64,000 nucleotides of DNA from Candidatus Sungiibacteriota bacterium (GCA_016432465.1 CP066690.1:590823-654822); one strand, 5' to 3'. Shown: positions 15,306-38,526, counted from the stretch's first letter. A program made the numbers and translations. The notes: generated by a model from the letters alone, not told the origin.

Positions 15306-15316
15306 TTTCGCTTCGG

Positions 15317-15438
15317 AAATATGCTTTGAAAAACTTCGCGCCGCCCCACCGAGGCGGCGCTCATCACGGGTCGGCCTCGCTCGCTCACTTCGTTCGCACC
15401 GTGGCCGCTCGTCCTCCCAGTGTTTTCAAAACATATTT
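15317..15438. mobile_element. miniature inverted-repeat element (family shared with 27961-28091 and 34170-34348)
   Basis: TIR GAAATATGCTTTGAAAAAC / GTTTTCAAAACATATTTC; right sub-terminal CGTCCTCCCAGTGTTTTCAAAA matches the other copies. Confidence 0.55.
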
Positions 15439-15555
15439 CCTCGCTTTACAGTTTTTCCCCACTGTCTCGAAAACGCACAGGCTCGTTTTATAAACCCAAA
15501 TGTTCAAACTTTAAATATTGAAATTTTGCAGCGATCCTTGTTTTTGGATTTGTTT

Positions 15556-15603
15556 TTTTAAAAAAGAAAACCGGCGAAAGGGATAGAACCCTTGATGCCG
15601 GTT
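15556..15603 (-). terminator. rho-independent terminator of the 15618..15806 minus gene
   Basis: AACCGGC...GCCGGTT stem then TTTTCTTTTTTT on minus strand. Confidence 0.55.
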
Positions 15604-15617
15604 CAATTGTTCAGGAT

Positions 15618-15806
15618 CTATTCCTTTATGAGGATTCCTAGGCCTATAACCATACATGCAACCCCTCCCAATGCAGTTGTAAACATGTAGTCTCTCGCCC
15701 ACCAGAAGAGGCTTAGGAAGACTTTATCTCCTGCAGCAAATCCAAACGGCGCTAGAACAAACGCGACCCCGATGCCCAACAATAACGTGACTAGTATCTT
15801 TCTCAT
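15618..15806 (-). CDS. small membrane protein (2 TM)
   Basis: AAGGGGGG RBS, hydrophobic throughout. Confidence 0.5.
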   Translation of the reverse strand: MRKILVTLLLGIGVAFVLAPFGFAAGDKVFLSLFWWARDYMFTTALGGVACMVIGLGILIKE

Positions 15807-15868
15807 ACAGACCCCCTTGGCTCTATGGTTCTATTTATATATTACCATAGATTTAAGTTAAAAGTCAA

Positions 15869-16390
15869 ATGCTCTACATATTCACAGGTAACGGCAAGGG
15901 CAAGACAACGGCGGCTCTCGGACAAGCCATGCGAGCGGTTGGTGAAGGAAAACGAGTACTGATGGTTCAATTTATCAAGGGCCCCTGGAAATCAGGGGAG
16001 GATTTTTTAGCTAAGGGGCTTGAGCCCCATTTTAAGTTGGTGAAGATGGGCAAAGGGTTTGTCGGAATTATGGGTGATAAACTTCCGCGCGAAGAGCATG
16101 AGAAAGCGGCCGAGGAGGCGCTTGAGTATGCGCGAAAAGAAATAGAATCCGGCAACTGGGACATTGTAGTTTTGGATGAAATAAATAATGCAGTTTCACT
16201 AAATTTAATTTCCAAAGAAAAAGTTTTAGAACTCCTACAAGCTATAAGCTATAAGCTACAAGCTATAATTCTAACCGGCCGTGATGCCCCTAAAGAATTT
16301 ATTGATAGAGCCGACCTTGTTACCGAGATGAGGGATATTAAACATCCATACCACAAGGGGGTTAAAGGAAAACGAGGACTTGAGTATTAG
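15869..16390 (+). CDS. cobO: cob(I)alamin adenosyltransferase CobA/CobO/BtuR family
   Basis: MLYIFTGNGKGKTTAALG P-loop start typical of PF02572. Confidence 0.8.
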   Translation: MLYIFTGNGKGKTTAALGQAMRAVGEGKRVLMVQFIKGPWKSGEDFLAKGLEPHFKLVKMGKGFVGIMGDKLPREEHEKAAEEALEYARKEIESGNWDIVVLDEINNAVSLNLISKEKVLELLQAISYKLQAIILTGRDAPKEFIDRADLVTEMRDIKHPYHKGVKGKRGLEY

Positions 16391-16419
16391 TTGACAGGAT
16401 TTATTGAAGGTAATATAAT
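16391..16419 (+). promoter_or_regulatory. perfect-consensus sigma70 promoter TTGACA-17nt-TATAAT
   Basis: read directly; drives the 16456 ORF. Confidence 0.6.
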
Positions 16420-16455
16420 ATATTGCAGTTCTGTACCCTTTAATGGAGATTGGTT

Positions 16456-16950
16456 ATGGCGTGTCACGTAGAGCTCCATGAGGACCTTCCTGCGCCGTTA
16501 TGTTTTGCAAGGCTTGCCAGCAGTGTTCTTTCCGTCCTTCGTGATCTTCCCGAACGTAGATTTGACCTAAAATGGAGCGAGATCCTGACTCTTCAAGCTG
16601 GACAGGAATTTCTTGAGATGGTTTTTGAATATATGTCAGGGAGACGACAGTTGTTTCATGAGCCTCAAGAGGAGCGAGATCGCATTTTATTAGCACATAG
16701 GCTGGTGCTAAAAACACTTGGTGCTAAGGAAGGAGACTCAGCAGACTGTGGTGAATGTGAACGAGCCACCGTTAACTACATAGACGTACTCGTCTCTTAC
16801 TCTCTGCGCCTATATGTTGCTGAGGTGAGAATCATCAGAGAAATGGAGGGTTTTTTCTGGCATGTTAGACAGTTGGCATTAGAAGAGGTGAGTAAAGATA
16901 AAGTAATTGAGCGTGTGCAGATGGAATCGTCAGGCCAGCACCACTGTTAG
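16456..16950 (+). CDS. hypothetical protein, no recognisable domain (Cys/His-containing, acidic)
   Basis: GGAG RBS 8 nt upstream of ATG 16456; codon usage visibly GC-richer than neighbours. Confidence 0.5.
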   Translation: MACHVELHEDLPAPLCFARLASSVLSVLRDLPERRFDLKWSEILTLQAGQEFLEMVFEYMSGRRQLFHEPQEERDRILLAHRLVLKTLGAKEGDSADCGECERATVNYIDVLVSYSLRLYVAEVRIIREMEGFFWHVRQLALEEVSKDKVIERVQMESSGQHHC

Positions 16951-17003
16951 CCGTTCGGCATCAGCCGGCGGTTTTTAAATTATTGTCCGGAACCCCAACC
17001 CCT

Positions 17004-17059
17004 AAAATTTTATCTTAACACTTTTTGACGATCGTCAAAAAGTGTTAAGATAAAATTTT
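17004..17059. repeat. 56-bp perfect palindrome centred on GACGATCGTC
   Basis: AAAATTTTATCTTAACACTTTTTGACGATCGTCAAAAAGTGTTAAGATAAAATTTT is its own reverse complement. Confidence 0.9.
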
Positions 17060-17095
17060 GGTTGAAAGATCTGCCCAATTTGTTAAGGTGCCACC

Positions 17096-18592
17096 ATGAC
17101 CAAATCCCGTATTTTTCTATTTTTGCTGCTGGCGTTCGTTGCGGGGGTTGCCGTCCGATCATTTATTTCCGTTTCAGTTTTTATGATCTGGTTTGGTATA
17201 CTGTTGGCGGTAGTCGTCGTTATTTTGGGAATTTTTAAAAAACAAAAAGCCGCAACCCTGTACGGCTTTTTGTTTTTGGCGTTTCTTGCCGGAATTTTTA
17301 GGTTTATGGCGGCTGAACATTCCCCGCCGGATCTTACGGCTCTTTACGGCAATCCGATAACAATACAAGGAATCGTAGTTGAGGAGCCGGAGCAGAAAGA
17401 AACCACTCAGCATCTGAAAGTTAAGATAGGGTCGTTTGCGCCGAATTTTTATACTCTAGCAACTACCCGAAAATATCCGGAGTACAAAATGGGGGATGAG
17501 CTGAAAATTGCCGGTCTGTTGCAGAAACCAGAGAATTATGACGACTTTGATTATATATCTTATCTTGCCAAAGAAGATATTTATAGCACCATGTCGTTTC
17601 CCCTTATAGAAAAAGTTGGAGAAAGGCGCGGCAACAAATTAAGAATTTCTCTCTCCGAAATTAAAAAATCGTTTGAGGAGAAAATTGATCGGGTGCTACC
17701 CGAACCGCACGCCTCGTTTTTAAAAGGACTTTTGTTGGGAGAACGCGGGTCTTTGCCCAAAGATTTGGTGGAAAATTTTAATCGCACCGGCACTACACAT
17801 ATTGTTGCACTCTCCGGCTACAACATTACTCTGGTGGGCAGGTTTTTTGTTAACCTGCTCTTGTTTCTTACGATTCCTTTCCAGATTTCTTTTTGGGTTG
17901 CTTCAGTTGCCATAATGCTTTTTGTAATTCTTACCGGTGCTTCCCCCAGTGTCGTGCGGGCGGGGATTATGGGAATTTTGGTACTGGTTGCCAACCGTGA
18001 AGGTAGGTCCTATCACATGACTAATGCCCTTGTTTTGGCCGGCGCCGTGATGATTTTTCAAAATCCCAAAATTTTGCGTTTTGACACCGCATTTCAGTTG
18101 TCTTTTCTTGCAACCATCGGATTAGTTTACCTTTCGCCATATGTTGAAAACTATATTGATCGCATACGTTTCAGATTAAGTCAGGCGCGCGCCAGATTTA
18201 TTTTGGAACGTAAAAAGAGCTTCAAGAGTAAACAGATTCTTACAGAGACCCTCTCGGCACAGCTTATGGTACTACCTTTATTAATTTATCTTTTCGGCCG
18301 GGTATCATTTATAAGTCCCATAACTAATGTTTTGATTCTACTCGCGGTTCCTTACTCCATGGCCGTGGGTTTTGCGGCCGGCGCGCTGGGATTTTTGTGG
18401 GAGCCGTTGAGCCTGGTCGCGGGTTATGCGGTATGGTTTTTGCTTGAGTATAAAATTCGCACCATAGAACTTTTTGGATCTCTGCCCTATGCTTCACTAC
18501 AGCTGGGAGAGTGGTTTTTGGTGCCGTTGGTGCTTGGTTACGGCTATGTGGCTTTTAGGCTATGGAAAAAAGCAGCAAAAACGCAAAATTAA
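17096..18592 (+). CDS. comEC: ComEC/Rec2 competence membrane domain (DUF4131 + Competence)
   Basis: multi-TM, GTTHIVALSGYNI(T)L motif. Confidence 0.75.
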   Translation: MTKSRIFLFLLLAFVAGVAVRSFISVSVFMIWFGILLAVVVVILGIFKKQKAATLYGFLFLAFLAGIFRFMAAEHSPPDLTALYGNPITIQGIVVEEPEQKETTQHLKVKIGSFAPNFYTLATTRKYPEYKMGDELKIAGLLQKPENYDDFDYISYLAKEDIYSTMSFPLIEKVGERRGNKLRISLSEIKKSFEEKIDRVLPEPHASFLKGLLLGERGSLPKDLVENFNRTGTTHIVALSGYNITLVGRFFVNLLLFLTIPFQISFWVASVAIMLFVILTGASPSVVRAGIMGILVLVANREGRSYHMTNALVLAGAVMIFQNPKILRFDTAFQLSFLATIGLVYLSPYVENYIDRIRFRLSQARARFILERKKSFKSKQILTETLSAQLMVLPLLIYLFGRVSFISPITNVLILLAVPYSMAVGFAAGALGFLWEPLSLVAGYAVWFLLEYKIRTIELFGSLPYASLQLGEWFLVPLVLGYGYVAFRLWKKAAKTQN

Positions 18593-19422
18593 TATCGTTA
18601 ATAATTCTTGCTACAGTTTCGGTCACGATTTGGTATGCGGTTTTTTACTTTGAAGCGCGCCAAAACCTTATCGTGAACTTTTTTGATGTGGGACAGGGTG
18701 ATGCGATTTTTATAGAGGTTCCTGACGGAAATCAGATTTTAATAGACGGGGGACCAAACGACAAAATCCTTTCCAGGCTTGGCGGTGTTATGCCTTTTTG
18801 GGACCGCGATATTGATCTTCTGGTTTTAACCCACCCGCACGCCGACCACCTAGACGGACTTTTAGAAGTTTTGAAACGTTACAACATAGGTCAGGTGCTG
18901 GAGTCGGGGGCAGAACACTCAATTCCTGAATATCAAGAGTGGCGCGATCTTTTGAGAACAAAAAACGTCCCCGTATTTGTGGCCCAACGCGGGCAAAAAG
19001 TTAAGGCCGGCGGAGCAGTTTTTGTCGTCCTTGCCCCGTTTGAAAATTACGGCGGCAAAACCCTAAAAAATATTCATGACGCCACAGTTATTTTAAAAAT
19101 GAATTACGGTTCAACCACGGCCCTTTTTACGGGAGACGCCGAGAAGCAGCTTGAATATAGACTGTTGTGGAGTAACTCGGATATAAAATCAGATATTCTT
19201 AAGGTTGGTCACCATGGTTCTAAAACTTCAACTTCGGAAGAATTTTTAAAAGCAGTGTCACCGAAATTTGCCGTAGTACAAGTTGGCCGCAAAAATCGTT
19301 ACGGCCATCCGGCGCAGGAGGTACTGGATCGTATAGCCGGCGCGGGCGTAGCCCTTTTTAGGGTTGACCTTGATCGTGATACTGAATTTGTCAGTAATGG
19401 TTTACAGTTTTGGCAAAAATAG
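18562..19422 (+). CDS. ComEC-type metallo-beta-lactamase domain protein (separate ORF, -1 frame relative to the upstream gene, 31-nt overlap)
   Basis: N-terminal TM helix then HxHxDH (THPHADH) MBL motif. Confidence 0.7.
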   Translation: MEKSSKNAKLISLIILATVSVTIWYAVFYFEARQNLIVNFFDVGQGDAIFIEVPDGNQILIDGGPNDKILSRLGGVMPFWDRDIDLLVLTHPHADHLDGLLEVLKRYNIGQVLESGAEHSIPEYQEWRDLLRTKNVPVFVAQRGQKVKAGGAVFVVLAPFENYGGKTLKNIHDATVILKMNYGSTTALFTGDAEKQLEYRLLWSNSDIKSDILKVGHHGSKTSTSEEFLKAVSPKFAVVQVGRKNRYGHPAQEVLDRIAGAGVALFRVDLDRDTEFVSNGLQFWQK

Positions 19423-19436
19423 TTAGGATAGAAATC

Positions 19437-20036
19437 ATGGAAGTAAAAAAACATCCCAAAGAAGAACGGACGTTTCTCTTGATAAAGCCCGATGGCGTAA
19501 AGCGCGGACTGGTTGGTGAGTGTATAAAACGAATTGAGCAACGAGGACTTAAAATTATTGCGTTTAAAATGGTCAGGGCGGGCGAGGAACATGCGCGTAC
19601 CCACTATCCCGGAACTGAAAAGTGGCTGCGGGGAATGGGCGAGAAAACACTTGAGACTTATGCCAAATACGGAAAAGACCCCAAAAACGAATTAGGCACT
19701 GATGACCCGTTTAAAATAGGGGAGCAGATTTATAAATGGAATACGGATTTTCTTACTTCGGGGCCAGTAGTGGCCACGATTATTTCCGGGATCCATGCGA
19801 TTGATATGGTTCGTAAAATAGTGGGTAAAACCGTACCGGCTCTGGCGGAGATGGGAACAATACGAGGCGACTTTTCGGTTGATTCTCCGGTGCTGGCCAA
19901 TGGCGGCAAGCGGGCTATCCACAATGTTGTGCATGCTTCAGGAGATCCGGAGGAGGCGGAGCATGAAATTGAACACTGGTTTTCGCCAGAAGAAATACAC
20001 GACTACAAGAGAGCGGAGGAAGACATAATGTTTTGA
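19437..20036 (+). CDS. ndk: nucleoside diphosphate kinase (long form with insertion)
   Basis: ERTFLLIKPDGV, NVVHASGDPEEAEHEI; AGGA RBS before ATG 19437 (listed ORF begins at TTG 19410). Confidence 0.8.
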   Translation: MEVKKHPKEERTFLLIKPDGVKRGLVGECIKRIEQRGLKIIAFKMVRAGEEHARTHYPGTEKWLRGMGEKTLETYAKYGKDPKNELGTDDPFKIGEQIYKWNTDFLTSGPVVATIISGIHAIDMVRKIVGKTVPALAEMGTIRGDFSVDSPVLANGGKRAIHNVVHASGDPEEAEHEIEHWFSPEEIHDYKRAEEDIMF

Positions 20037-20044
20037 AATCAAAA

Positions 20045-20066
20045 AACCGCGCAGACGCGGTTTTTT
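20045..20066 (+). terminator. rho-independent terminator CCGCG-caga-CGCGG-TTTTTT
   Basis: read directly. Confidence 0.6.
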
Positions 20067-20298
20067 GATACCCCACCGTTTCAAGAACAAAAGGCATTTA
20101 GCATAAATCCAAGTGGGTCGCCGCAACCCTCGGTCCAAAGACCTAGGTACTATAAGCGTCCCAAGTAAAAACAATTGTCCTAAAGCCTAAATTCTTGAGC
20201 AGTGAGGCTAACCTTAATATAACAAATTAAAAACCTGCTTGCTACTAAAATATCCCCAGTCGGGTTATATTATTTGAGTACCTTGAAAAAGGGTTTTT

Positions 20299-21378
20299 AT
20301 GAAAATTCTGGTTGTGGGACTCGGAACTATCGGGGAGCCCTTGGCCCGGCTTTTTCTTAAGGTTAAGGACAGACTGGGCATTGAGGAACTTATGGTGCAT
20401 AAAAACACCCCCGAACTTAAATATCGTGGAATGCTTAGCCGTTTTCGTCAGTTTGGGGCAAAACAGGTTGTCTATGTAGAAAAGAAAGAGGAGTTCTCCA
20501 AGCTTCTGGCGCCGAGCTCTTTTGATGCAGACTATACTTTTGAGGAGGCAATTATGCGGGCCGACGTTATTGTGGATTGTACGGTTAAGGGCGTGGGCCG
20601 GATGCTAAAAGAGAAGTACTATCGTCACTTGCCCAACCCCAAAGTAATTTTTCAGGGGTCGGAAAAGGGCACCGGTAAGCCCTATGCTTTTTCGATTAAC
20701 GACAAGGCCCTGATCCCCAACGAAGATAAGTTTATCCAGGTTGTAAGCTGTAACACCCATCAGATTCTTTGTATTTTGCAGACATTGGTATTTGCCTATG
20801 GCGGGGTGGAGAATCTTGGACAGGCCCGTTTCTATATTGCGCGACGTGCCAACGATATTTCCCAGACCGAATCAACCGTGGGAGTAGAAGTTGAGGGTCC
20901 GGTTCATTCGTGTTTTGGTTCGCATCAGGCCGAAGACGCGGCGCGCGTTTTTGCGACTCTGGGCATTAAGGATTTAGACATTCATGCTGCTGCTGATACT
21001 TTCAACAACCCCTTTATGCATGTGATCCACTTCAATATCACGCTGCGTACAGCAGTAACTTTGGAGGAAGTTGAGCGGCGCTTTCGTCAAAACCCCCTTA
21101 CTGCCGTTACTTATTGGCAGACCAACAATGAAGTTTTTGCCGAAGGGCGCGACTGGGGACATTTTGGAAGAATCCTTAATCAGACCGTAGTTTGTTTGCC
21201 CTCGCTGCAGGTGATTGGTGGTGGCCACGAAGTGGTGGGACGGTGTTTTACACCGCAGGACGGCAACGCCATTTTATCTTCTGTGGCCGCTGCGCTTTGG
21301 TTTCGGGATCCTATAAAGTACCGTGAAGAACTTCAGGAAAACTTTTTTAAGCTCCCCTTTATTTTTGATGAAGTCTAA
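20299..21378 (+). CDS. type II (archaeal-type) glyceraldehyde-3-phosphate dehydrogenase family
   Basis: N-terminal Rossmann GLGTIG, ADVIVDCT..IFQGSEK, catalytic VVSCNTH box aligning with archaeal GAPDH SCNTT. Confidence 0.7.
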   Translation: MKILVVGLGTIGEPLARLFLKVKDRLGIEELMVHKNTPELKYRGMLSRFRQFGAKQVVYVEKKEEFSKLLAPSSFDADYTFEEAIMRADVIVDCTVKGVGRMLKEKYYRHLPNPKVIFQGSEKGTGKPYAFSINDKALIPNEDKFIQVVSCNTHQILCILQTLVFAYGGVENLGQARFYIARRANDISQTESTVGVEVEGPVHSCFGSHQAEDAARVFATLGIKDLDIHAAADTFNNPFMHVIHFNITLRTAVTLEEVERRFRQNPLTAVTYWQTNNEVFAEGRDWGHFGRILNQTVVCLPSLQVIGGGHEVVGRCFTPQDGNAILSSVAAALWFRDPIKYREELQENFFKLPFIFDEV

Positions 21379-21387
21379 AAAACAAAA

Positions 21388-21409
21388 CAGACCGTACGGT
21401 CTGTTTTTA
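21388..21409. terminator. bidirectional terminator CAGACCGTACGGTCTG + T-run (A-run on other side)
   Basis: perfect 16-bp palindrome between convergent genes. Confidence 0.6.
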
Positions 21410-21433
21410 TCTTTCAGGTCGGGTATTTTGATC

Positions 21434-22258
21434 CTAGTATTGATTAATCAATTTGTTTACCAAAATCCGTCTCCGTATTGAGGGAAAATAAACCGGCCGA
21501 CCGTAGAGAGTTGTCTTGGCCTTATGGCCAACTCTTGCTAAAAACTTATCTAAGGACAGCTTTTTAGAATACGGGTTGTAAATAGAGTTTTTTAATCTTT
21601 CATCAAGGTCACGCTCATTTCGAATTTCAGGATTTTTACCAGTGGTCTTTCTTACTACCCCGGTTACATAATCTACAATGGATCCGCAGCCGGGCACAAT
21701 CGCATAAGACTCTTCAAGTCTTGGTAACCCCAATTTTGCAGCCAGCCCCCTTACTTCAAATCTAAGAAGTCCGCCAAGCGGCAAAAAATCGCCAGCAAAT
21801 AAATCCTTGGGGTAAAACCCAGTCAAAATCTCGGCTAAGTCCAGTGTTCCCACAACCAAACCGTGTTTTTCACGAGCTATTTCCCGTAGGACTATATACA
21901 TTAGGGAGTCATTCTGGGTGACATCGAAAGATTTTTCTGCGGGCATAAGTTTAATTTTTGCGATTTCTTTTTTCACAACACTCCTATAGTCTTTCGCCAG
22001 CCGTCTTAAGTCTATTTCAATTAAGCGGGTGCCTAAAAGGTTAGATACCCTCCGTGCGTTTTCAGTTTCTTTTTTTCGAAGCGTGGAGGCGCTGAAATGA
22101 ATTCCTACTGTCCTTGATTTGCCAATTGCGTAAGAAGCAACAGCAAGACAAGTGGAGGAGTCAAGACCCCCACTTAATGGCAGATAAAGATATCTCCCGC
22201 TTGGCACAAGGCTTCTAGTCCACTTTATGATTTTCCAAAAATTTGACTTGTCTTGCAT
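21434..22258 (-). CDS. nadE: NH3-dependent NAD+ synthetase
   Basis: PP-loop LPLSGGLDSS, GTLDLAEILTGFYPKD...LPLGGL. Confidence 0.7.
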   Translation of the reverse strand: MQDKSNFWKIIKWTRSLVPSGRYLYLPLSGGLDSSTCLAVASYAIGKSRTVGIHFSASTLRKKETENARRVSNLLGTRLIEIDLRRLAKDYRSVVKKEIAKIKLMPAEKSFDVTQNDSLMYIVLREIAREKHGLVVGTLDLAEILTGFYPKDLFAGDFLPLGGLLRFEVRGLAAKLGLPRLEESYAIVPGCGSIVDYVTGVVRKTTGKNPEIRNERDLDERLKNSIYNPYSKKLSLDKFLARVGHKAKTTLYGRPVYFPSIRRRILVNKLINQY

Positions 22259-22260
22259 TG

Positions 22261-22331
22261 TCGGGGTACCGAGATTCGAACTCGGACTAAATCCACCCCA
22301 TGGACTCGTGCTGCCGTTACACTATACCCCG
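22261..22331 (-). tRNA. tRNA-Pro (anticodon GGG), 71 nt, no encoded CCA
   Basis: manual cloverleaf: acceptor CGGGGTA/TACCCCG, T-arm CCGAG-TTCGAAT-CTCGG, anticodon loop AT-GGG-GT. Confidence 0.7.
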
Positions 22332-22388
22332 CCTTCGTCCGCCGTAGCGGACTTCGGCGGGTAAAACCCGTTAGTCCGCGAAGGCGGA
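22332..22388 (-). terminator. GC-rich nested hairpins between the hydrolase gene and tRNA-Pro
   Basis: CCGCCTTCG...CGAAGGCGG and GTCCGC-cgta-GCGGAC. Confidence 0.4.
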
Positions 22389-23279
22389 TTACACCTTCTT
22401 TATCCATCTCATAATCGTCCGTGAAAGTTCCTTTTCTTTTTTCTGAAAGCCGTGCTTCGCGCCTTTAATTATAAATCCAGAAAAAGATTTTGTCCCGCGC
22501 GCATTTTTCTCAAAAATTTCAATTAAATTTTTGGCGGGGCGGTCAAGGTGTTCATCGCGAGAGCCGATAATTACGGCTAATGGCACCCGAACGCTTTTTA
22601 ACTCTTTCCACTTGGCGCGTGGATTAAGATAGGGGAACACATCTTCGGGGCTTCCTTGGGTATGCAAACTAAGGTAGCGGCGGGCAGTTATTATTTCCGG
22701 CTTTAGCCCGCGTCTTGTAAAAATCTCCATAGGAAACAGCTGGTCAAGCCGTTTTTTATTGCGGGCTATTTTCTGTACCTCTTTGAGTATTGGCTCAAAC
22801 GCTTTGCCAAGTTTCTTTTTTTCTGCAGCAATGTCGTTAATTCCTCCCAAAAGAAGCAGTCCCCGTACGCGGCGGTCGCGCGCTTTATACATATAGTATA
22901 GAACCTTGTTTGTGCCGGTGGAATGTCCGGCCAGAAAAATATGTTTGTATCCAAATCTCTGTGCCGTGTTGACGATGGCCCGGATGTCGTGGACGCAATC
23001 CTCAAATTTTTCAAAGGCTGAACCGCCAAGTCCGGCAGGCGGGAGCGCCTCATAATTTATAATATCGTGCCCGCGGTTATTAAATTTAAAGTATCCGATT
23101 CCATTTTTTCTGCAGCGCGATGCGAGCTCGTTGACGAGCGTTTGTCCCGAATAAAATCGTGAAGAAAAACCATGTATCCAGACAAGGGCGATTTTTGATT
23201 TCTTTTTTGGCCGGACATAGATGCCGTCCAGCGTAACTCCGTCACGGGTTTTTATTTTGGTGAGAAGAACGGGGATCAA
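22389..23279 (-). CDS. alpha/beta hydrolase
   Basis: GHSTG nucleophile elbow. Confidence 0.7.
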   Translation of the reverse strand: MIPVLLTKIKTRDGVTLDGIYVRPKKKSKIALVWIHGFSSRFYSGQTLVNELASRCRKNGIGYFKFNNRGHDIINYEALPPAGLGGSAFEKFEDCVHDIRAIVNTAQRFGYKHIFLAGHSTGTNKVLYYMYKARDRRVRGLLLLGGINDIAAEKKKLGKAFEPILKEVQKIARNKKRLDQLFPMEIFTRRGLKPEIITARRYLSLHTQGSPEDVFPYLNPRAKWKELKSVRVPLAVIIGSRDEHLDRPAKNLIEIFEKNARGTKSFSGFIIKGAKHGFQKKEKELSRTIMRWIKKV

Positions 23280-23295
23280 GTTAGTTCAATGTTTT

Positions 23296-25137: not shown

Positions 25138-25160
25138 AAATTAAACTTTAACATTTTTAA

Positions 25161-25808: not shown

Positions 25809-25877
25809 AGTGCTTGACAAAATACCAGTTTGTCTGGTACTATAATAGCACGAGGCTCTTTACAATGGGGGATAACA

Positions 25878-26834: not shown

Positions 26835-26851
26835 AATAGTCAGTAGTGACA

Positions 26852-26886
26852 GCCCATAATCGAGTTCTCGATTATGGGCCTTTTTA
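26852..26886 (+). terminator. rho-independent terminator GCCCATAATCGAG-ttc-TCGATTATGGGC-TTTTT
   Basis: 13-bp perfect stem + T-run. Confidence 0.7.
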
Positions 26887-26896
26887 ATGCGAGCGG

Positions 26897-26925
26897 TTGA
26901 CCGCTAAGCAGTCTTCTGCTAAAAT
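26897..26925 (+). promoter_or_regulatory. promoter TTGACC-17nt-TAAAAT positioned 7 nt upstream of the rpsL ATG (leaderless-type)
   Basis: hexamers read directly; no SD between -10 and ATG. Confidence 0.5.
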
Positions 26926-26932
26926 TTCTTTT

Positions 26933-27346
26933 ATGCCGACTATTACGCAGTTAATTAAACACGGGCGCTCGGCCCGCCGCTATAAAGCAAAAGCGCCTGC
27001 TCTTTTGCGCGGATTTAATGTTTTGAAAAATCGCCCCGAATTTTATCCTTCGCCGTTCAAGCGCGGAGTCTGCATCAAAGTAACAACCGTAACACCAAAG
27101 AAACCAAATTCCGCCCTGCGCAAGGTGGCGCGTGTTAGACTTACGAACGGCATGGAAGTTACGGCCTACATCCCGGGAGAAGGGCATAAACTTCAGGAGC
27201 ATTCGGTGGTTTTAATCCGTGGGGGAAGAGTCAAAGATTTGCCGGGAGTTCGGTATCATATTGTGCGTGGTATACTTGATACCACGGGAGTGGAGGGCAG
27301 AAAACAACAACGTTCCAAATATGGAGCAAAAAGGCCAAAACAATAG
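26933..27346 (+). CDS. rpsL: ribosomal protein S12
   Basis: [12 protein letters not shown] start; listed ORF extended upstream to 26897. Confidence 0.9.
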
Positions 27347-27348
27347 TT

Positions 27349-27816
27349 ATGAGAAGGAAAAAGAAATTTCAACGAGAAATAACCTCCGATCAAAAATACA
27401 GCAACGTACAGGTTGCTAAATTTATTAACTACGTTATGCGTAAGGGGAAAAAATCTACCGCCCAGAGGGTTGTTTATAAAACTTTTGATTTGATTGAAAA
27501 AAAATATAAACAGGATCCGCTTGGTGTATTTACCACGGCAGTGCAAAATGCGGGGCCAACTCTTGAAGTACGTTCGCGCCGCATCGGCGGCGCAACTTAT
27601 CAGGTGCCGCGCGAAGTGAGGGGAGATAGAAGGCAAGCCTTGGCGTTTCGTTGGATTCTGGGTGCAGCGCGTTCCAAAAAAGGAAAACCCATGCACGAGA
27701 AATTAGCCGAAGAGTTGGTGGCCGCCACAAAGAATGAAGGTGTGGCAATAAAGAAAAAACTGGACACCCATCGTATGGCCGAGGCAAACAAAGCATTTGC
27801 GCATTTCGCGTGGTAA
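27349..27816 (+). CDS. rpsG: ribosomal protein S7
   Basis: ends ...[12 protein letters not shown]. Confidence 0.9.
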
Positions 27817-27867
27817 GAACCCGAGAATGCGAAGCGCCAACCTTCAAAATTATATAAAAGGCGCGGA

Positions 27868-27937
27868 GTCCCGCACCGAACGAAGTTCTGGTGCGGGAGC
27901 AGAGGCCAATAAGGCGTTTGCTCACTTCGCGTGGTAG
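27868..27937 (+). pseudogene. hairpin (GTCCCGCACC...GGTGCGGGA) plus a second, synonymous-diverged copy of the rpsG 3' end ([12 protein letters not shown]-stop)
   Basis: gcagaggccaataaggcgtttgctcacttcgcgtggtag re-encodes the last 12 codons of rpsG with 9 synonymous changes. Confidence 0.6.
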
Positions 27938-27960
27938 ATTGCTCGCTAAAGCGGTTCCCT

Positions 27961-28091
27961 CGCCCCGCTCTTTTGTAAACACGCTCGTTTCGCTCCTGCG
28001 GCGAAACTCGCTAATAGTCGGCCGAAGTTTTCTCTGCCTATGGCAGAGAACCAAGCAAACTCCGTCCTCCATTGTTTACAAAAGGGCGGGG
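27961..28091. mobile_element. miniature inverted-repeat element, copy 1
   Basis: TIR CGCCCCGCTCTTTTGTAAAC / GTTTACAAAAGGGCGGGGCTCG; internal GAAGTTTTC and CCGTCCTCCATTGTTT shared with copy at 34170. Confidence 0.6.
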
Positions 28092-28186
28092 CTCGACCGC
28101 TTTACGCTCGCTTATAGAATTTTATTAACGGCCTCGGCCGCATTCTTACTCGCAGTGGGCATTTTTATTTTGTAAAGTATAATTTT

Positions 28187-30316
28187 ATGCCCCGTGACTA
28201 TCCAATAGAAAGAACAAGAGATATAGGTATTATAGCTCATATAGATGCTGGGAAAACGACAGTCACCGAGCGCGTTTTGTTTTACACTGGCGTATCGCAT
28301 AAAATCGGCGAAGTGCATGAGGGAACAACTGTGATGGACTGGATGGAACAGGAGCGGGAACGGGGAATTACTATTACGGCCGCAGCCACCACTTGTTTTT
28401 GGACGCCGACCTATCTCACAACCAACAACCAACAACCAACAACCAACGACGAAAAAAATGAATACCGTATAAACATAATTGATACCCCGGGGCACATTGA
28501 TTTTACGGTGGAGGTTCAGCGCTCATTGCGAGTTTTGGACGGCGCCGTAGTGGTTTTTGACGGCGTGGCCGGAGTGGAGCCGCAATCAGAAACCGTCTGG
28601 CGGCAAGCCGATAAATTTCACGTGCCGCGCATTTGTTTTATCAACAAACTTGACCGCATGGGCGCATCTTTTGAAAAATCTCTTGCTTCAATTTATGAAC
28701 GGCTTACACCCAATGCCGTTGCCGTAACAATTCCGATTGGACACGAGCAAGAGCATGAGGGAGTGATTGATTTGATGCGTATGAGAGCAGTGCGTTTTTT
28801 GGGAGAGCACGGCGAGCAAATAGAGCTTTCCGATATTCCGGAAAATTTAAAATCTTCAGCCGAGGAATGGCGCCACAAAATGGTTGAGAAAATTTCCGAG
28901 TCGGACGAGGCGCTTACGGAAAAATATCTTGAGGGTAAGGAAATTTCCATAGAGGAATTGCGTCGGGCTCTACGTAAAGCAACTCTTGCATATAAACTCG
29001 TTCCGGTTTTCTGCGGCTCGGCCCTAAAAAATAAAGGAGTACAGCTTGTTCTGGACGGTGTTATTGATTATCTGCCTTCACCCCTTGATCTTCCTCCGGT
29101 AAAAGGCATCAATCCCAAAAGCGGCGCGGAAGAGTCACGTGAGGCCAAAGACGATGCCCCTTTTGCCGCGCTTGCTTTTAAACTTCAGTCCGATCCGTAT
29201 GTGGGACAGCTTACTTATTTTCGTGTTTATTCGGGAACGTTGAATGCCGGCTCTTATGTTTTAAATTCTGTGAAAGGAGAGCAAGAACGTGTGGGCAGAA
29301 TTTTGCGGATGCATGCCAACTCCCGCGAAGAGCTAAAAGAAATTAACGCCGGAAATATCGGCGCCATTGTTGGTTTGAAAAATACCCATACCGGAGATAC
29401 CCTCTGCGACCCCGAGCACCCTATTGTGCTGGAAAAAATTATTTTTCCGGAGCCGGTGGTGTCCCTTAAAATTGAACCTAAAACCAAAGCCGATCAGGAA
29501 AAAATGGGGATTGCTCTGCATCGTCTTGGTGAGGAAGACCCCACCTTCCGGATTAAGGGTGATCTGGAAACAGGAGAGACCATTATCTCCGGAATGGGCG
29601 AGCTGCATTTGGAAATTATCGTGGACAGAATGAAGCGTGAGTTTTCGGTTGCGGCCAATGTGGGCCGGCCGCAGGTTGCCTACAAGGAAACAATTAAAAA
29701 ACTGGCCACTGCCGAAGGGAAATATATTCGTCAGTCAGGAGGCCGCGGACAGTACGGACATGTATGGCTTCGGGTGGAGCCGCGGGAGCGCGGCAAGGGC
29801 TTTGAGTTTGTTGATGAAATTAAGGGTGGTATAATTCCCAAAGAGTTTATACCGGCAGTTGAGAAAGGAATTAAGGAAGCAATGGAAAAGGGAGTGCTGG
29901 CAGGATATCCGATGGTGGATATGGAGGTTGCTCTTTATGACGGTTCGTACCACGAAGTTGACTCTTCGGAAGCTGCTTTTAAAATCGCGGGGTCAATTGC
30001 TCTGCAGGAGGCATCTCGCAGAGCAGGGCTTGTGATGCTTGAGCCTATTATGAGAATAGAGGCCGTTCTGCCCGAACAATTTTTGGGAGAGGTGACGGGA
30101 GACTTAAATTCTAAGCGCGGCCGGATTGAGGAAATGTCAGAGCGGGGGCTTGGAATTAAAGTAATTGATGCCAAAGTTCCTTTATCCGAGATGTTTGGAT
30201 ATGTTACGACCCTGCGGTCGTTGACACAGGGAAGGGCCTCCTTCACAATGGAGTTTGATCATTATGAAGAAGTGCCGAACAATATAGCCCAATTGATTAT
30301 TGAAGGAAAAAAGTAA
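28187..30316 (+). CDS. fusA: elongation factor G (with a short [11 protein letters not shown] low-complexity insertion in the G domain)
   Basis: [17 protein letters not shown] etc. Confidence 0.95.
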
Positions 30317-30461
30317 TTTCACAATGTCCCGACGATCGCTTTGCGATGTCGGGATCCCGACTTCCTTATTGATGAATATAAAACGGAGCGTCGGGAGAAT
30401 CTGACCACTATGAGGAGGTGCCGCAGAATATAGCGCAGTTAATTATTGAAGGAAAAAAATA
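30317..30461 (+). pseudogene. hairpin insert followed by a diverged second copy of the fusA 3' end (…[19 protein letters not shown]-stop)
   Basis: TTCACAATG occurs at 30242 and 30318; second copy = first copy + 67-bp insert containing GTCCCGACGATCGCtttGCGATGTCGGGA hairpin. Confidence 0.6.
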
Positions 30462-30479
30462 GGCGCCGTAGGGCGCCAG

Positions 30480-30731
30480 TTAGGACTTTTTTCTCCGACT
30501 TAAGGGGGAAGACATGTGGAGTGTGAACTTTACAACAATACGGGGTCTACCCCTAAGTGTTTCCCCCCGTTGTTTAAAGCGTATAGAAGCCGAAATATAC
30601 GGGTCCGCTTTTCTGATACGCTCGTTTAGCATGTCTAGTAGCACGTCTGTCGTAAGGTGGGGGGAGATTGAGTCGTTGATCAGTTCACGGATTTGTTTCA
30701 AGCTCAGAGTAGCATATGCGTTAATTTTCAT
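30480..30731 (-). CDS. hypothetical small protein
   Basis: GAGGGGTGA SD 4 nt upstream of ATG 30731; no known domain. Confidence 0.5.
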   Translation of the reverse strand: MKINAYATLSLKQIRELINDSISPHLTTDVLLDMLNERIRKADPYISASIRFKQRGETLRGRPRIVVKFTLHMSSPLSRRKKS

Positions 30732-30903
30732 GTAGTCACCCCTCATTTTGCACCACAACCATTAGTAGCAAAACCGGTAAATTTAGTCAAGTACGTTTAT
30801 GAATTTGGATAAAATCAAAAATTTATCAAGGCCTTGATAGCAGGTACTCTATAGAGTAAAATAAGAAGTATAATGCCCACTTTGATAGAAAAAAAATAAA
30901 TTT

Positions 30904-31317
30904 ATGGAGGGACAAGAAAAGATCCCAAAACTAACCAAAGAGGAACTCGCCCGAGATCCTAGGGAGGCTTTTAGAAACTTAGATGCGCATGAGATCTCCC
31001 TTGATTTGTCCAGATTGACCTTAATTGATAAAGGCGTGGAGGAAATCCACCGTTGGTATACAGCTGAGCTGGTAGAGCAAAAACTAGAAGATCCCGAGGG
31101 GTGGTTTAGAAGTCCGAAACACTTCGGTTTATACCACGAGCTTGTAGAAAGGTTAGTTAGGGATACTAAGATTCTTCAAAATGCAACAGGACGGGCTGTC
31201 TTGGAGGAGATGGTTGATAAAATACAAAAGCATGTGGGTGCATATATAGACCCTGTTTCTGCTGTTAACTTCCGGATATTTTTTAAGGAAGCAATAGAGT
31301 TTCTGGGACATAAATAG
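30904..31317 (+). CDS. hypothetical protein
   Basis: 137-aa ORF, no recognisable domain, 10 bp upstream of the next ORF. Confidence 0.45.
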   Translation: MEGQEKIPKLTKEELARDPREAFRNLDAHEISLDLSRLTLIDKGVEEIHRWYTAELVEQKLEDPEGWFRSPKHFGLYHELVERLVRDTKILQNATGRAVLEEMVDKIQKHVGAYIDPVSAVNFRIFFKEAIEFLGHK

Positions 31318-31327
31318 GGTTTTTGAT

Positions 31328-31627
31328 ATGGATTTCTCTAAACTTAAAAACTTAGTAAAGCACAATGGGGATAAATTTGTATTTGTTGAAAATGGGGAGC
31401 CGGAGATGGTGATGATGTCGTTTAAGGAATACGAGAAACTTGCGACCAACGGCAAATATGAAGGGCTGTACCCAACAGATCACGGGTTTCGCCCCCACAA
31501 CGCTGAATTTGCCGACCTTGGGTTTGGGCATTTTAAGGAGACAGAGGTTGTGTTGCCCGGCGGAGGAGAAGGGGCGGGGCTGCCCGTTAGATTAGAAGAT
31601 ATTCGTCTTGAAGATTTGCCTATTTAG
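31328..31627 (+). CDS. Phd/YefM-like antitoxin domain protein with disordered Gly/Pro C-terminal tail
   Basis: N-terminal KFVFVENGEPEMVMMSFKEYEKL resembles YefM ...CVLMSLEEYNSL. Confidence 0.45.
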   Translation: MDFSKLKNLVKHNGDKFVFVENGEPEMVMMSFKEYEKLATNGKYEGLYPTDHGFRPHNAEFADLGFGHFKETEVVLPGGGEGAGLPVRLEDIRLEDLPI

Positions 31628-31740
31628 CATCTTGACTAACCAATTACGTTAAGTTAGGATTAATTTTGTTATCAAAAACATTAAAGTAAGCGAATTTTTC
31701 AAGTTGCATGTCCTCGGGAAATGTAATTTGCGATATATAC

Positions 31741-31761
31741 GCTAAATTTTAGACAAATATG
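31741..31761 (+). promoter_or_regulatory. CTAAATTTTAGACAAAT-ATG motif (also upstream of rpsN at 41107-41127); -10-like TAAATT, no SD
   Basis: near-identical 20-nt blocks directly abutting two start codons. Confidence 0.35.
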
Positions 31762-32952
31762 GCAGAAAAATTTGAGCGAACCAAGCCGCATATAAACGTC
31801 GGAACCATTGGGCACGTTGACCATGGAAAGACGACCCTAACAGCGGCCATAACCAAAATCCTTAGTTTAAAAGGGCTTCCTTCACGCGTAGAGTCAGTGG
31901 ATCAGATTGACAATGCGCCCGAAGAAAAAGCGCGCGGAATTACTATTGCGCTTCATCACTCCGAGTACGAGACCGAGAAGAGGCACTACGCCCACATTGA
32001 CGCTCCGGGACACGCCGACTACATCAAAAATATGATTACTGGCGCAGCCCAGATGGATGGCGCGATTTTGGTTGTTTCCGCATCTGATGGCCCTATGCCG
32101 CAGACTCGGGAGCATATACTTCTGGCGCGGCAAGTCGGGGTACCGGCAGTTGTGGTGTTTTTGAATAAAGTGGATATGGTGGACGATCCGGAGCTAATTG
32201 ACTTAGTGGAAGCAGAAGTGCGGGAGCTCCTTAAAAAGTATGAATTTCCCGGAGACGAAATTCCCGTGATCCGGGGATCAGCCCTCAAGGCGCTTGACGC
32301 CAAATCTGTGGATGACGAATGGGCCAAGAAAATTTTGGAGCTTGTAGGAGCCCTTGATACTTATATTCCCGAACCCGTGCGCGATGTGGACAAGCCTTTC
32401 CTGATGCCTATTGAGGACGTTTTTTCCATTGAGGGCCGAGGTACGGTTGTAACCGGAAGGATTGAAAGAGGTAAAGTAAAACTAAACGATGAGGTTGGGG
32501 TTATTGGCCTTCGCGATACCCAAAAAACTATTGTTACGGGAATTGAGATGTTTAACAAGTCCCTTGATGAAGGAATGGCCGGGGACAATGCGGGTATCCT
32601 TCTACGCGGTCTTAAAAAAGAGGACGTGGAGCGTGGACAGGTAATTGCCAAGCCCGGGTCAGTAACGCCCCATACAGAATTTGAATCAGAGGTTTATATT
32701 CTGACCAAAGAAGAGGGTGGACGCCACACGCCGTTTTTCACCGGCTACAAGCCGCAGTTTTATATCCGCACCACTGATGTGACCGGCGATGTGACGCTTC
32801 CGCAGGGAACGGAAATGGTTATGCCCGGAGACACCATAAAGTTTACGGTAAAACTTATTGTTCCGGTTGCGCTTGAGGAAAAACAGAGGTTTGCAATCAG
32901 AGAGGGGGGTAAAACGGTCGGGGCAGGAGTGGTTACGAAAATTATGAAATAG
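31759..32952 (+). CDS. tuf: elongation factor Tu
   Basis: [21 protein letters not shown]. Confidence 0.95.
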
Positions 32953-33020
32953 CTTATAGCTTATAGCTTATAGCTTATAGAGGCGACTAAAAGCTAAAAG
33001 CTAAAGTCTAAAAGCTAGTA
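32946..33020. repeat. heptamer microsatellite (AGCTTAT)x4.5 followed by (AAAAGCT)-type repeats
   Basis: read directly; same heptamer in opposite orientation at 16240-16270. Confidence 0.8.
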
Positions 33021-33027
33021 TGGTTCT

Positions 33028-33360
33028 TTGGCAGCAAAAAAAGAAGCAGAAATTAAGCCCAAACTGCGCATTAAAGTTCGAGCCTACGACTCGAAGATTA
33101 TTGATAATTCGGTCAAACAGATTGTGGATACGGCAGTACGAAACGGAGCGGAAGTGGTGGGGCCGGTGCCTTTGCCAACAGAAATGCATAAATATACTGT
33201 CAACCGCTCCAGTTTTGTCCACAAAAACGCCCGGGAACAATTTGAGATGCGGGTGCATAAGCGCCTGATTGATATTTTAAATCCAACCCCAAAAACTATT
33301 GATGCGCTGACAAATCTAAATCTGCCGGCGGGAGTAGATATAGAGATTAAAATGATGTGA
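33028..33360 (+). CDS. rpsJ: ribosomal protein S10 (TTG start)
   Basis: [21 protein letters not shown]... Confidence 0.85.
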
Positions 33361-33525
33361 TTTAATTTCGGTGGAGCACTGAATTCTATTTCGTTTATAA
33401 CGCGAGATAGAATTGAGTGATTCAATCACTCATCGGTTGTCATTATGGTAATCAATATTTTTACATTTTAGGAAATAAAAACCCGCCGTGTTTTGCTACG
33501 CCGGGAAACCGGCTTTTTTGTTACC

Positions 33526-34158
33526 ATGAAATTCGTATTAGGAGAAAAATTAGGAATGAGTCAGATTTTTGATAAAGAAGGCAATGTCATTCCGGTGACG
33601 CTTGTTAAGGCAACACCAAATGTAGTTTTGCAAATAAAAACCAAGGAAAAAGACGGGTATGAAGCAATTCAGATTGGGGCAGGAGAGCGGAAAGCCAAAA
33701 ATATAAAAAAGCCGCAGAGGGGGCATTTTTCCGCCGGAGGCGGGTCCGCCTTTGGCGGAAAAAATTTGGGGAATTTTCGCTACGTGCGTGAGTTTAAGAC
33801 AGCAGACAAACCGGAACGAGGTCAAAAAATTGATGTATCAGTTTTTCAAGAGGGCGACAAGGTAAAAGTAAGCGGAATTTCCAAAGGAAAAGGGTTTCAG
33901 GGCGTGGTAAAACGTCACGGATTTCACGGGGCGCCCGCAACGCACGGCACCAAGCACGCCCATCGCCAGCCGGGGTCCATTGGCGCCACTTGGCCGCAAA
34001 GAGTGATAAAAGGAATGCGAATGGCAGGAAGAATGGGTGGCGATAGGGTGAGCGTGAGAAATTTAAAAATAGCGAAGGTGGATTTAGAGAATAATATATT
34101 AGCGATAAAAGGAGCAGTACCGGGGAGACGAGGGACGTTACTTGAGATTAGAGGATAG
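33526..34158 (+). CDS. rplC: ribosomal protein L3
   Basis: MKFVLGEKLGMSQIFD start; preceded by hairpin GCCGGgaaaCCGGC + TTTTTT. Confidence 0.9.
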   Translation: MKFVLGEKLGMSQIFDKEGNVIPVTLVKATPNVVLQIKTKEKDGYEAIQIGAGERKAKNIKKPQRGHFSAGGGSAFGGKNLGNFRYVREFKTADKPERGQKIDVSVFQEGDKVKVSGISKGKGFQGVVKRHGFHGAPATHGTKHAHRQPGSIGATWPQRVIKGMRMAGRMGGDRVSVRNLKIAKVDLENNILAIKGAVPGRRGTLLEIRG

Positions 34159-34169
34159 TGCGGGTTTTC

Positions 34170-34348
34170 TCGGAGATTTCTTTTGTAAACACGATTCGGT
34201 CGCTCCAGTGCCTAGGCCCTTCGGGCCGGCATCCCGGCAGCAAAGCTGCCTAGGGACGGCGACCTCACTAAGGGTCGGACGAAGTTTTCCGCCTTCGGCA
34301 GAAACCAAGCAACTCCGTCCTCCCATTGTTTCCAAAAGAAATCTCCGA
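34170..34348. mobile_element. miniature inverted-repeat element, copy 2 (longer internal segment)
   Basis: TIR CGGAGATTTCTTTTGTAAAC / GTTTCCAAAAGAAATCTCCG. Confidence 0.6.
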
Positions 34349-38524: not shown

Positions 38525-38526
38525 AT

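Follow-up and report, generated by a model that had tools for sequence, protein, structure and literature searches.

A 64-kb stretch of the genome of Candidatus Sungbacteria, a member of the Candidate Phyla Radiation (CPR), contains three copies of a lineage-specific family of structured intergenic repeats, each about 125–180 nt long: one behind the ribonucleotide reductase gene nrdJ, one between rpsG and fusA, and one between rplC and rplD. This whole stretch (CP066690.1:590823–654822; 64,000 nt) is called the window, and positions in it are counted from its first nucleotide. An earlier note on the same DNA had described these sites as a family of miniature inverted-repeat elements among named genes; Pfam backs the gene labels for nrdJ (class II ribonucleotide reductase), S12, S7, elongation factor G (EF-G), S10, L3, and L4. 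The elements and the genes beside them are as follows, with P denoting helices and J the junction strands between them:

12564–15305, + strand: nrdJ, class II B12-dependent ribonucleotide reductase (Pfam), upstream of copy 1
15315–15440, + strand: copy 1 (subfamily B), with P1 15315–15332/15423–15440, P2 hairpin, J2/3 CUCAUCACGGGUCGG, and 3′ block CGUCCUCCCAGUGUUUUCAAAAC
27349–27816, + strand: rpsG, S7 (Pfam), upstream of copy 2
27941–28112, + strand: copy 2, full extent, with GCTCGCT direct repeats, P0, internal loop UCCCUC/UCG, and core 27962–28092
27962–28092, + strand: copy 2, core, with P1, J1/2 ACACG, P2 (CGUUUCGCUCCUGCGGCGAAACUCG), J2/3 CUCGCUAAUAGUCGG, P3/P3a, bulge AACCAAGCAA, then UCCUCCAUUGU
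28187–30316, + strand: fusA, EF-G (Pfam), downstream of copy 2
33493–34158, + strand: rplC, L3 (Pfam), upstream of copy 3
34160–34355, + strand: copy 3, full extent, with outer helix GCGGG/CCCGC 34160–34164/34351–34355 and core 34169–34349
34779–35417, + strand: rplD, L4 (Pfam), downstream of copy 3, with an antisense open reading frame (ORF) between

The three copies lie where the earlier note had placed them, to within 1–2 nt and all on the + strand, and their true extent exceeds the ends that it had given, copy 2 continuing into P0 and the GCTCGCT repeats and copy 3 into P0. The inverted-repeat bounds are present, with closing repeats at 15315–15332/15423–15440 in copy 1 (18 nt, 94%), 27962–27981/28073–28092 in copy 2 (20 nt, 95%), and 34169–34191/34327–34349 in copy 3 (23 nt, 96%). 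The elements measure 126–181 nt in the window and hold no ORF. Each copy folds more stably than its dinucleotide shuffles (z = −5.4, −7.2, and −7.9 for copies 1, 2, and 3), with a fold energy of −89.1 kcal/mol for copy 3 and of −81.3 kcal/mol (z = −8.1) for the whole 179-nt unit of copy 2. A covariance model, R2, run over the whole window with filters off, recovers exactly three members, at 125, 102, and 66 bits for copies 3, 2, and 1; all other matches score at most 25 bits and fit as generic hairpins only. Across covariance-model runs the scores range over 66–103 bits for copy 1, 102–114 bits for copy 2, and 125–129 bits for copy 3. The copies are related to one another, and chance similarity among them is excluded.

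The right sub-terminal block that had been ascribed to all three copies, CGTCCTCC(C)ATTGTTT.CAAAAG (also written CTCCGTCCTCC(C)ATTGTTT.CAAAAG), is exact in copies 2 and 3, where it has its only occurrences in the window (28063–28084 and 34316–34338; 0 expected in shuffles), and is represented in copy 1 by the variant CGTCCTCCCAGTGTTTTCAAAAC at 15410–15432. Copy 1 also has GGGTCGGCC and is without the AACCAAGCAA region. Copies 2 and 3 further have in common the left block CTTTTGTAAACACG, which recurs without a mismatch at 27970 and 34180, as well as GAAGTTTTC, GTCGG.CGAAGTTTTC, and AACCAAGCAA. The outer parts of the inverted repeats do differ among copies, their arms varying and covarying.

The consensus of the family is a rod of roughly 25–35 bp (P0/P1) that closes a three-way junction. 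The rod starts on the outside with helix P0 and passes through an asymmetric, conserved internal loop into P1. J1/2 (ACACG-AYUCG) leads to the P2 arm, a variable hairpin with the conserved loop GCUCC.GCGGC that tolerates large expansions, including a branched one of ~49 nt in copy 3 (roughly 34209–34257) and more in L073 and L039 (L numbers designate loci outside the window). J2/3 (CUCRCUAAGGGUCGG) leads to the P3/P3a arm, which carries a conserved asymmetric 8-nt bulge, CCAAGCAA, and 3′ of P3 the strand UCCUCCCAUUGU re-enters P1. Conserved unpaired blocks of the family are ACACG, CUCRCUAAGGGUCGG, AACCAAGCAA, and UCCUCCCAUUGU; the junction strands among them, ACACG, CUCRCUAAGGGUCGG, and UCCUCCCAUUGU, are near-invariant.

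The full layout, read 5′ to 3′, is CTCGCT, N3–4, P0 (often GCGGUU), (U)CCCUC, P1 through P1′, UCG/UCA, P0′ (AACCGC), N4–6, CTCGCT, and the short form is GCTCG-core-GCTCGCT. In copy 2, P0 is at 27947–27955/28096–28104 and GCTCGCT at 27941–27947 and 28106–28112; copy 3 has P0 and no CTCGCT; and copy 1 has a 3′ CTCGCT at 15440–15445. Every + strand occurrence of GCTCGCT in the window lies within or adjoining the elements, indicating that it does not serve as a general signal in this genome. The 5′ flank motif of some loci extends into the final codons of the gene in front, as in the tail of DnaK (...DSQ followed by the stop codon). The differing outer stems in the window and the "core-less rods" of L006 and L080 had raised the idea of a core inserted in a pre-existing hairpin, which we set aside: P0 (GCGGUU/AACCGC), the internal loop, and the CTCGCT flanks are met again at unrelated loci and therefore belong to the element itself; moreover, L006 keeps a J2/3 remnant, indicating that it is a deletion derivative.

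Several degenerate or accessory forms were seen in other loci. The rods of L006 (10577–10670) and L080 (~8400–8560) consist of the CTCG.T/P0/CCCTC/P1 frame with a short simple interior, and L080 has an orphan 3′ core half 60 nt downstream of its rod. In L027 (2150–2500, − strand), degenerate fragments form an array in which CTCGCT recurs. In L066, L021, L019, L052, L039, and L078, a conserved (G)GTAGC stands 15–25 nt past the 3′ CTCGCT, and behind it comes a short G+C hairpin that in many cases has a U-run; this is a REP-like (GTAG plus palindrome) or a lineage-specific terminator signature of metagenome copies, of which the window has none.

To follow the family outside the window, we took the str/S10 loci of eight relatives, in which the ribosomal operons are loose too, with spacers of 60–550 nt and extra small ORFs; an identical L3 (100%) is encoded on a 923-kb contig of a Candidatus Sungiibacteriota metagenome-assembled genome, and the closest other L3 relatives, at ≤84% identity, are Sungbacteria or metagenome sequences. 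The window's EF-Tu had no record in an exact-protein look-up. A covariance model, R1, comprising the three window copies and the orthologue in L004, found further copies in these relatives after fusA (L010 and L014) and after rpsJ (L004). A single metagenome scan with the pattern AACCAAGCAAN{4,9}TCCTCCN{0,1}AKTGT gave 72 loci, ~6 of which are chance matches within coding sequence, and in these 72 loci R1 has 77 hits with 50 distinct sequences. Members of the family are present in samples from Rifle and Hainich. The family thereby totals ~55 distinct copies in Sungbacteria-like contigs and related genomes, far above the three of the earlier note, and its description as a multi-copy, dispersed, small non-coding family with inverted-repeat bounds holds. 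Density on the longer contigs is roughly 1 copy per 15–20 kb, and we estimate dozens of copies per roughly 1-Mb genome. Among GTDB representatives, a set that does not include the window's genome, the pattern CGTCCTCC.AKTGTTT.CAAAA gave 3 chance hits only, in unrelated phyla; among viral contigs, one pattern gave a single chance match without model support and a second pattern no match. Neither at the gathering threshold nor at E ≤ 10 did Rfam 15 give anything relevant over the elements in the window and 8 further loci.

The predicted structure is backed by covariation across the 50 distinct sequences. Standard pairs fill 91.7% of cells, as compared with 44–58% when the partners are slid by 1–3 columns, and both sides have changed in 31 of 39 pairs; in outer P1 this is so for all 14 pairs. 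The covariation score is 0.51 versus 0.136 in shuffles, a value reached in 0 of 500 shuffles. As in structured cis-acting RNAs generally, loops are more conserved than stems, the mean pairwise identity being 0.73 for unpaired and 0.58 for paired columns. The P3 helices at the rplC site differ among the copies of the window, L004, and L054 yet pair in each: GGACGAAGUU/AACUCCGUCC (9/10 positions), GGAGCGAUUU/AAAUCGCUCC, and GGAAAAGUUU/AAACUUUUCC. One trait is strand-specific: P2 has a U.G pair that 41 of 48 sequences retain. The covarying arms indicate that what had been taken for terminal inverted repeats (TIRs) is a helix and not a conserved transposase-binding sequence.

The elements have a steady position and orientation relative to transcription units, as is also general for structured cis-acting RNAs. 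Copy 1 starts 9 nt past the nrdJ stop codon (15303–15305), and the outer helix of copy 3 starts 1 nt past the rplC stop codon (34156–34158). A crude ORF call gave an upstream ORF for 45 non-redundant copies, and 38 of these copies are sense to it (38:7, 85%); most of the co-oriented copies lie 3–25 nt past the upstream stop, and some lie at distances of 43–145 nt. On the downstream side, the gene runs in the same direction in 23 cases and converges in 12. On the 43-kb contig Ga0209542_10002281, L025 (+) and L037 (−) are opposite, and both run in the sense of the gene immediately upstream of them, indicating that orientation tracks the gene strand and not a fixed genome strand. The upstream genes, most of them named by eye from their C-terminal 50 residues, are housekeeping genes: L3 (in three genomes), EF-G (in two), S7, S9, S10, S11, L2, L33, RpoA, RRF, DnaK, ClpP, MurA, FtsW, and NrdJ. 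Many of them are expected to be highly expressed. The L066 element comes after the ClpP stop and before a hairpin with a U-run behind it, and thus inside the 3′ untranslated region (UTR).

Within the window the copies are only distantly similar: copies 2 and 3 are 65% identical, copies 1 and 3 55%, and copies 1 and 2 46%. Copy 1 belongs to a separate subfamily, with its nearest relative at L036:8659 (81%, versus 46–55% to copies 2 and 3) and a further one at L035:272. Copy 3 has positional orthologues between rplC and rplD at L004:10577–10704 (74% identity) and L054:3734–3860 (70%), which are 78% identical to each other; the L3 proteins of the three genomes are 77–86% identical. In L004 (L3 85.5% identical), the element stands 3 nt past the rplC stop, with helices that are altered and still complementary. 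Since the window copies are 46–65% identical and copy 3 is nearer to its positional orthologues, the copies are old paralogues; a recent transposition or concerted evolution between copies 2 and 3, suspected from a 14-mer that they have in common, was dropped on the latter ground. At the rplC site of L006 there is an internally deleted derivative with the P0/loop/P1 frame and the J2/3 remnant, in L010 the L3–L4 spacer is missing altogether, and in other relatives AT-rich hairpins of no relation to the family stand there.

The earlier note had likened the family to miniature inverted-repeat transposable elements (MITEs), and this likeness holds in part. The elements are small, non-coding, multi-copy, and dispersed (3 in 64 kb and ~55 distinct in related contigs), they have inverted repeats, and their sites are patchily occupied; TIR sequence conserved among copies, a matching parent insertion sequence (IS), and a variable target-site duplication (TSD) were not found. 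The flanks are instead constant, TC...TC or CTCG(CT). TC...TC flanks occur in 25 of 49 copies versus 18.8 expected with flanks shuffled among copies, and matches between the two flanks of a copy do not exceed those in shuffled pairings. No transposase or integrase is present among the 47 ORFs of the 64-kb window by Pfam. As for an autonomous partner, for which a search had been suggested, none is present within the window, and none with matching ends was found in ~550 kb of related loci, where no ORF stands between a 5′ and a 3′ signature set apart from each other.

Comparison with other known classes was likewise negative. For REP/REPIN–RAYT, the window has no GTAG-hairpin family, no GTAG-REP association, and no Y1 transposase; GGTAG-hairpins follow some metagenome copies. 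For an intrinsic terminator, the 3′ arm is followed by UCGACC... with no U-runs, and a + strand terminator scan skips the elements. An integron attC-like site is ruled out by core-site polarity, the ends being ...GTT/AAC..., the reverse of attC, and the window has no integrase. A candidate promoter that would face outward from the 3′ flank, with a single 9/12 match at 28093–28120, was rejected, its spacing being inconsistent in other copies. Four other long stems of the window (671–828, 12435–12564, 38525–38631, and 40925–41076) are not members, having R2 scores of at most 18 bits as generic hairpins or no match.

We favour, with a confidence that falls a little short of even, a reading in which the family is a co-transcribed, cis-acting structured RNA module of 3′ UTRs and intercistronic spacers. 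It builds on what the sequences show, namely family membership, covarying structure, the placement and direction of the elements with respect to genes, and positional orthology, from which we infer that the elements are transcribed and fold as RNA. In particular, the 38:7 sense bias and the stronger conservation of unpaired than of paired columns argue for a constraint on the transcript rather than for recent transposition. In this RNA module, the element would be transcribed together with the gene in front and would work in cis as a "punctuation" module. The long perfect rod could be a target for a double-strand-specific nuclease (RNase III type) or a barrier to exonucleases, and would set or protect the mRNA end; folding would re-appose the upstream stop and the downstream start, so that operon expression could survive the insertion; and the conserved junction might bind a conserved factor. 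Any specific role in processing, stability, or protein binding is speculative. We propose that the family spread long ago by duplication or mobility and is now mostly inherited vertically. Several points weigh against this reading. The stems are near-purely Watson–Crick, with no preference for wobble: G.U/U.G and A.C/C.A account for 13 and 24 of 844 cells in P1 and for 2 and 3 cells in P3, and the U.G pair of P2 is the only conserved strand-specific wobble. An RNA selected on one strand usually allows G.U and not A.C, a pattern general for structured cis-acting RNAs and not seen here. Mismatches in palindromes can be erased during replication by intra-strand template switching, which yields a "compensatory" change in a single step. 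The purity of the stems may therefore reflect a pairing used as DNA, single-stranded or cruciform; it may reflect such template-switch repair of palindrome mismatches; or it may reflect a double-strand-specific reader that requires perfect helices. Its fit to DNA-level pairing or to palindrome repair counts against an RNA role. Furthermore, CTCGCT direct repeats flank many copies and could be a site-specific target duplication. Well-formed antisense copies stand in operon spacers (L060, 104 bits, and L065, 73 bits, both hand-checked), indicating that insertion or inversion in either orientation has occurred. In the window, L004, and L054 the L3–L4 spacer carries an element, whereas in L006 it holds a deleted derivative and in L010 nothing; these genomes, with L3 proteins at 77–86% identity, are too far apart to date the events. 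Decayed core-less rods are found in L006 and L080. The scan pattern demanded AACCAAGCAA...TCCTCC.ATTGT, so that these two blocks are conserved partly by construction; ACACG, the P2 loop, and CUCRCUAAGGGUCGG were left unforced. No known protein or RNase site was matched. We prefer the RNA module despite the Watson–Crick anomaly because of the gene-strand orientation, the placement directly after stop codons and, at least in L066, ahead of a terminator-like hairpin, the conservation of the junction over the stems, and the retention of orthologous sites with compensatory change.

The near-absence of wobble, together with the few antisense copies, keeps alive a serious rival that we hold to be possible but on the unlikely side, namely that the family is selfish non-autonomous mobile DNA (MITE-, REPIN-, or PATE-like), mobilised in trans, for example by an HUH/Y1 enzyme that reads the folded single-stranded DNA hairpin. 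The structure would then be kept for the mobilisation machinery, and the CTCG(CT) flanks would be a target or cleavage motif. Such an origin would account for a dispersed, multi-copy family at the density seen on longer contigs, for Watson–Crick helices of the kind found in DNA hairpins, for copies in both orientations, and for orthologous sites that are filled, decayed, or empty; the constant CTCG/CTCGCT, which flanks the element and internal hairpins, would be like a conserved tetranucleotide by a hairpin. It has to contend with the lack of a transposase, integrase, or HUH gene in the window and of a parent element in about 550 kb of loci, with the lack of a variable TSD and of a GTAG-hairpin (REP-like) family in the window, and with a sense bias that tracks the gene strand even within one contig. 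The low identity of copies within one genome and the closeness of the rplC copy to its positional orthologues further indicate that the copies are ancient and that pairing has still been kept by compensatory change. A new catalytic or factor-binding RNA, either a self-cleaving ribozyme that makes mRNA 3′ ends or a site for an RNA-binding or antitermination factor, is improbable. The three-way junction, near-invariant junction strands and bulge, and covarying stems are as in small ribozymes and protein-binding RNAs, the copies are numerous and oriented with transcription, and the family is not in Rfam 15; the same search brought up no ribozyme similarity even at E ≤ 10, the scarcity of G.U is atypical for RNA families, and antisense copies persist. 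The flanking GCUCGCUUUAAGCA may resemble boxA (GCUCUUUAACAA). An ordinary regulatory or termination signal, such as an intrinsic terminator, an attenuator, or an autoregulatory r-protein leader for str/S10, is highly improbable: two copies do lie in r-protein operon spacers, and long hairpins after genes are common in the window, but no U-tract follows P1 or P0, the terminator scan does not call the elements, no Rfam r-protein leader family matches, and the motif follows unrelated genes (nrdJ, DnaK, ClpP, MurA, and FtsW). This diversity of host genes rules out a specific r-protein binding site and largely refutes the ordinary-signal explanation.

Co-transcribed intergenic inverted-repeat families are known from other bacteria (ERIC, Correia, REP/BIME, RUP, and BOX), and we found no report of one from CPR in the literature, nor anything relevant on CPR or Parcubacteria repeats, MITEs, or structured RNAs. 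New with respect to the known families are the covarying arms, the conserved three-way junction, the strong sense bias, and the positional orthology. ERIC/IRU elements of Enterobacteria (imperfect palindromes of about 127 bp) are alike in size, in transcribed intergenic and operon-spacer sites, in forming a long RNA stem-loop, and in being non-coding; they differ in having a consensus that is conserved including its ends, both orientations, and a simple imperfect hairpin, whereas the present family has helices that differ and covary, ends in a three-way junction that is conserved, and has 85% of its copies in the sense of the gene in front. REP/BIME/REPIN elements (RAYT, Y1 HUH) are likewise dense extragenic palindromes that form hairpins just past genes, with a short motif at the hairpin foot (GTAG in REP, CTCG(CT) here). 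The present elements are 3–4 times longer, branched, and highly diverged with compensatory changes, whereas REP sequences form a near-identical cloud, and the window lacks a GTAG-hairpin family and a RAYT gene. Correia/NEMIS (Neisseria) and RUP/BOX (Streptococcus) are also small inverted-repeat elements that are co-transcribed within operons, and Correia elements are cleaved by RNase III at the TIR stem; unlike the present family, they have conserved TIRs, TA or other target duplications, and IS-like ends, none of which was found here. Integron attC sites resemble the family in lying directly 3′ of an ORF in one orientation, in length (57–141 nt), and in combining variable sequence with a conserved fold, which in attC acts as single-stranded DNA; here, by contrast, there is no R″/R′ (RYYYAAC...GTTRRRY), the polarity is GTT...AAC, the hosts are housekeeping genes and not cassettes, and no integrase is nearby. 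Intercistronic RNase III hairpins (phage T7 early region, rRNA-operon stems) and mitochondrial tRNA "punctuation" are alike in being long helices between cistrons that define mRNA ends; they are single-locus signals, unlike this dispersed homologous family with a conserved junction. RNase III-type punctuation is proposed for the predicted rod as a functional analogy.

CPR/Patescibacteria make up a large uncultured share of bacterial diversity and have tiny genomes, and we found almost nothing published on their non-coding RNAs or repeats. A structured element at an estimated dozens of copies per genome is unexpected in streamlined genomes, as is the retention of the same intercistronic site in the S10 operon over an L3 divergence of about 20%. 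If the elements act as RNA, they would be a lineage-specific way to punctuate or stabilise polycistronic messages. It is clearly unlikely that they amount to a CPR-specific class of functional RNA, as self-cleaving or nuclease-guiding "punctuation" of mRNA ends or as dedicated docking sites for RNA-binding or antitermination factors, at dozens of housekeeping genes per genome; if they did, they would constitute an unrecognised operon-level layer of expression control in reduced, uncultured organisms. If they are selfish DNA, they would be an unusually old and structurally disciplined repeat. Either way, the family is a candidate for an RNA family entry and may mark Sungbacteria-like genomes.

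The surroundings of the elements have features of their own. The 3′ end of rpsG is duplicated (27781–27937): the functional gene ends at 27816, and its last 11 codons and stop recur at 27902–27937, diverged at synonymous sites and ending 3 nt before the GCTCGCT of copy 2, with a hairpin of its own in the ~85 nt between the two ends. The repeat looks like an insertion that carried a replacement gene end. In L004, a remnant of the rplD 5′ end (atgaaagtcaaagtgcataaccaatcagaaaaagaaac) at 11080–11120, just upstream of the real rplD start, is a second example in these operons of a duplicated gene end beside an insertion. The rplC–rplD spacer of the window also contains an antisense ORF (34427–34789, − strand; 120 aa; no Pfam hit) with a near-consensus promoter-like site at 34789–34761 (TTGACA-17-TACAAT) and a terminator-like hairpin at 34424–34408; comparable reverse ORFs are present at this spacer in L004 (10781–11035) and L014 (4152–4385). 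It is unusual for the S10 operon to contain a gene on the reverse strand. In L004, L006, L007, L010, L014, and L015, extra small ORFs lie between rpsG and fusA, fusA and tuf, and rpsJ and rplC, among them DUF2283, DUF4258, a PhdYeFM antitoxin, and several without a Pfam hit, with seven ORFs between S10 and L3 in L007. In the Sungbacteria lineage, the ribosomal super-operon is a hot spot for insertions.

Other inverted repeats of the window appear to be of different kinds. The four long stems at 12435–12564, 38525–38631, 40925–41076, and 671–828 have a CCCCC.CC-rich left arm and a right arm (GGTGGGGGA or GGAGGGGGA) at or near the Shine–Dalgarno (SD) position of the next gene; the left arms of the 38525 and 40925 stems lie 0–8 nt past the upstream stop, and 38525–38631 includes a decoy copy of CTGGGAAGG that makes an alternative pairing possible. 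These stems look like anti-SD/SD hairpins for translational coupling or switching. The interior of 40925–41076 resembles the reverse complement of that of 671–828 (gcgtggccgaataggcc...gggacgaagcgcttcgc; BLAST matches of 17 nt and 13 nt, E about 0.1), a weak indication of a second small repeat family in both orientations. Perfect palindromes of 36–56 bp, with arms 0–1 nt apart, lie just past genes or the RNase P RNA at 17004–17059, 52982–53017, 53559–53609, and 53854–53899, and could be terminators, core-less rods, or cruciform sites; the one at 17004–17059 has CUUUUUGAC in common with the inner P1 of the family. The RNase P RNA itself (bacterial class A, 150 bits; 53063–53567) spans 505 nt versus a model of 367 positions, corresponding to roughly 140 nt of insertions. 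Finally, a hairpin at 41079–41135 (CATGATTGT..CTAAATTTTA ... TAAAATTTAG.ACAATCATG) surrounds the start codon of rpsN (S14, zinc type), and upstream of it a 4-codon mini-ORF follows a strong GGAGGGGGA.

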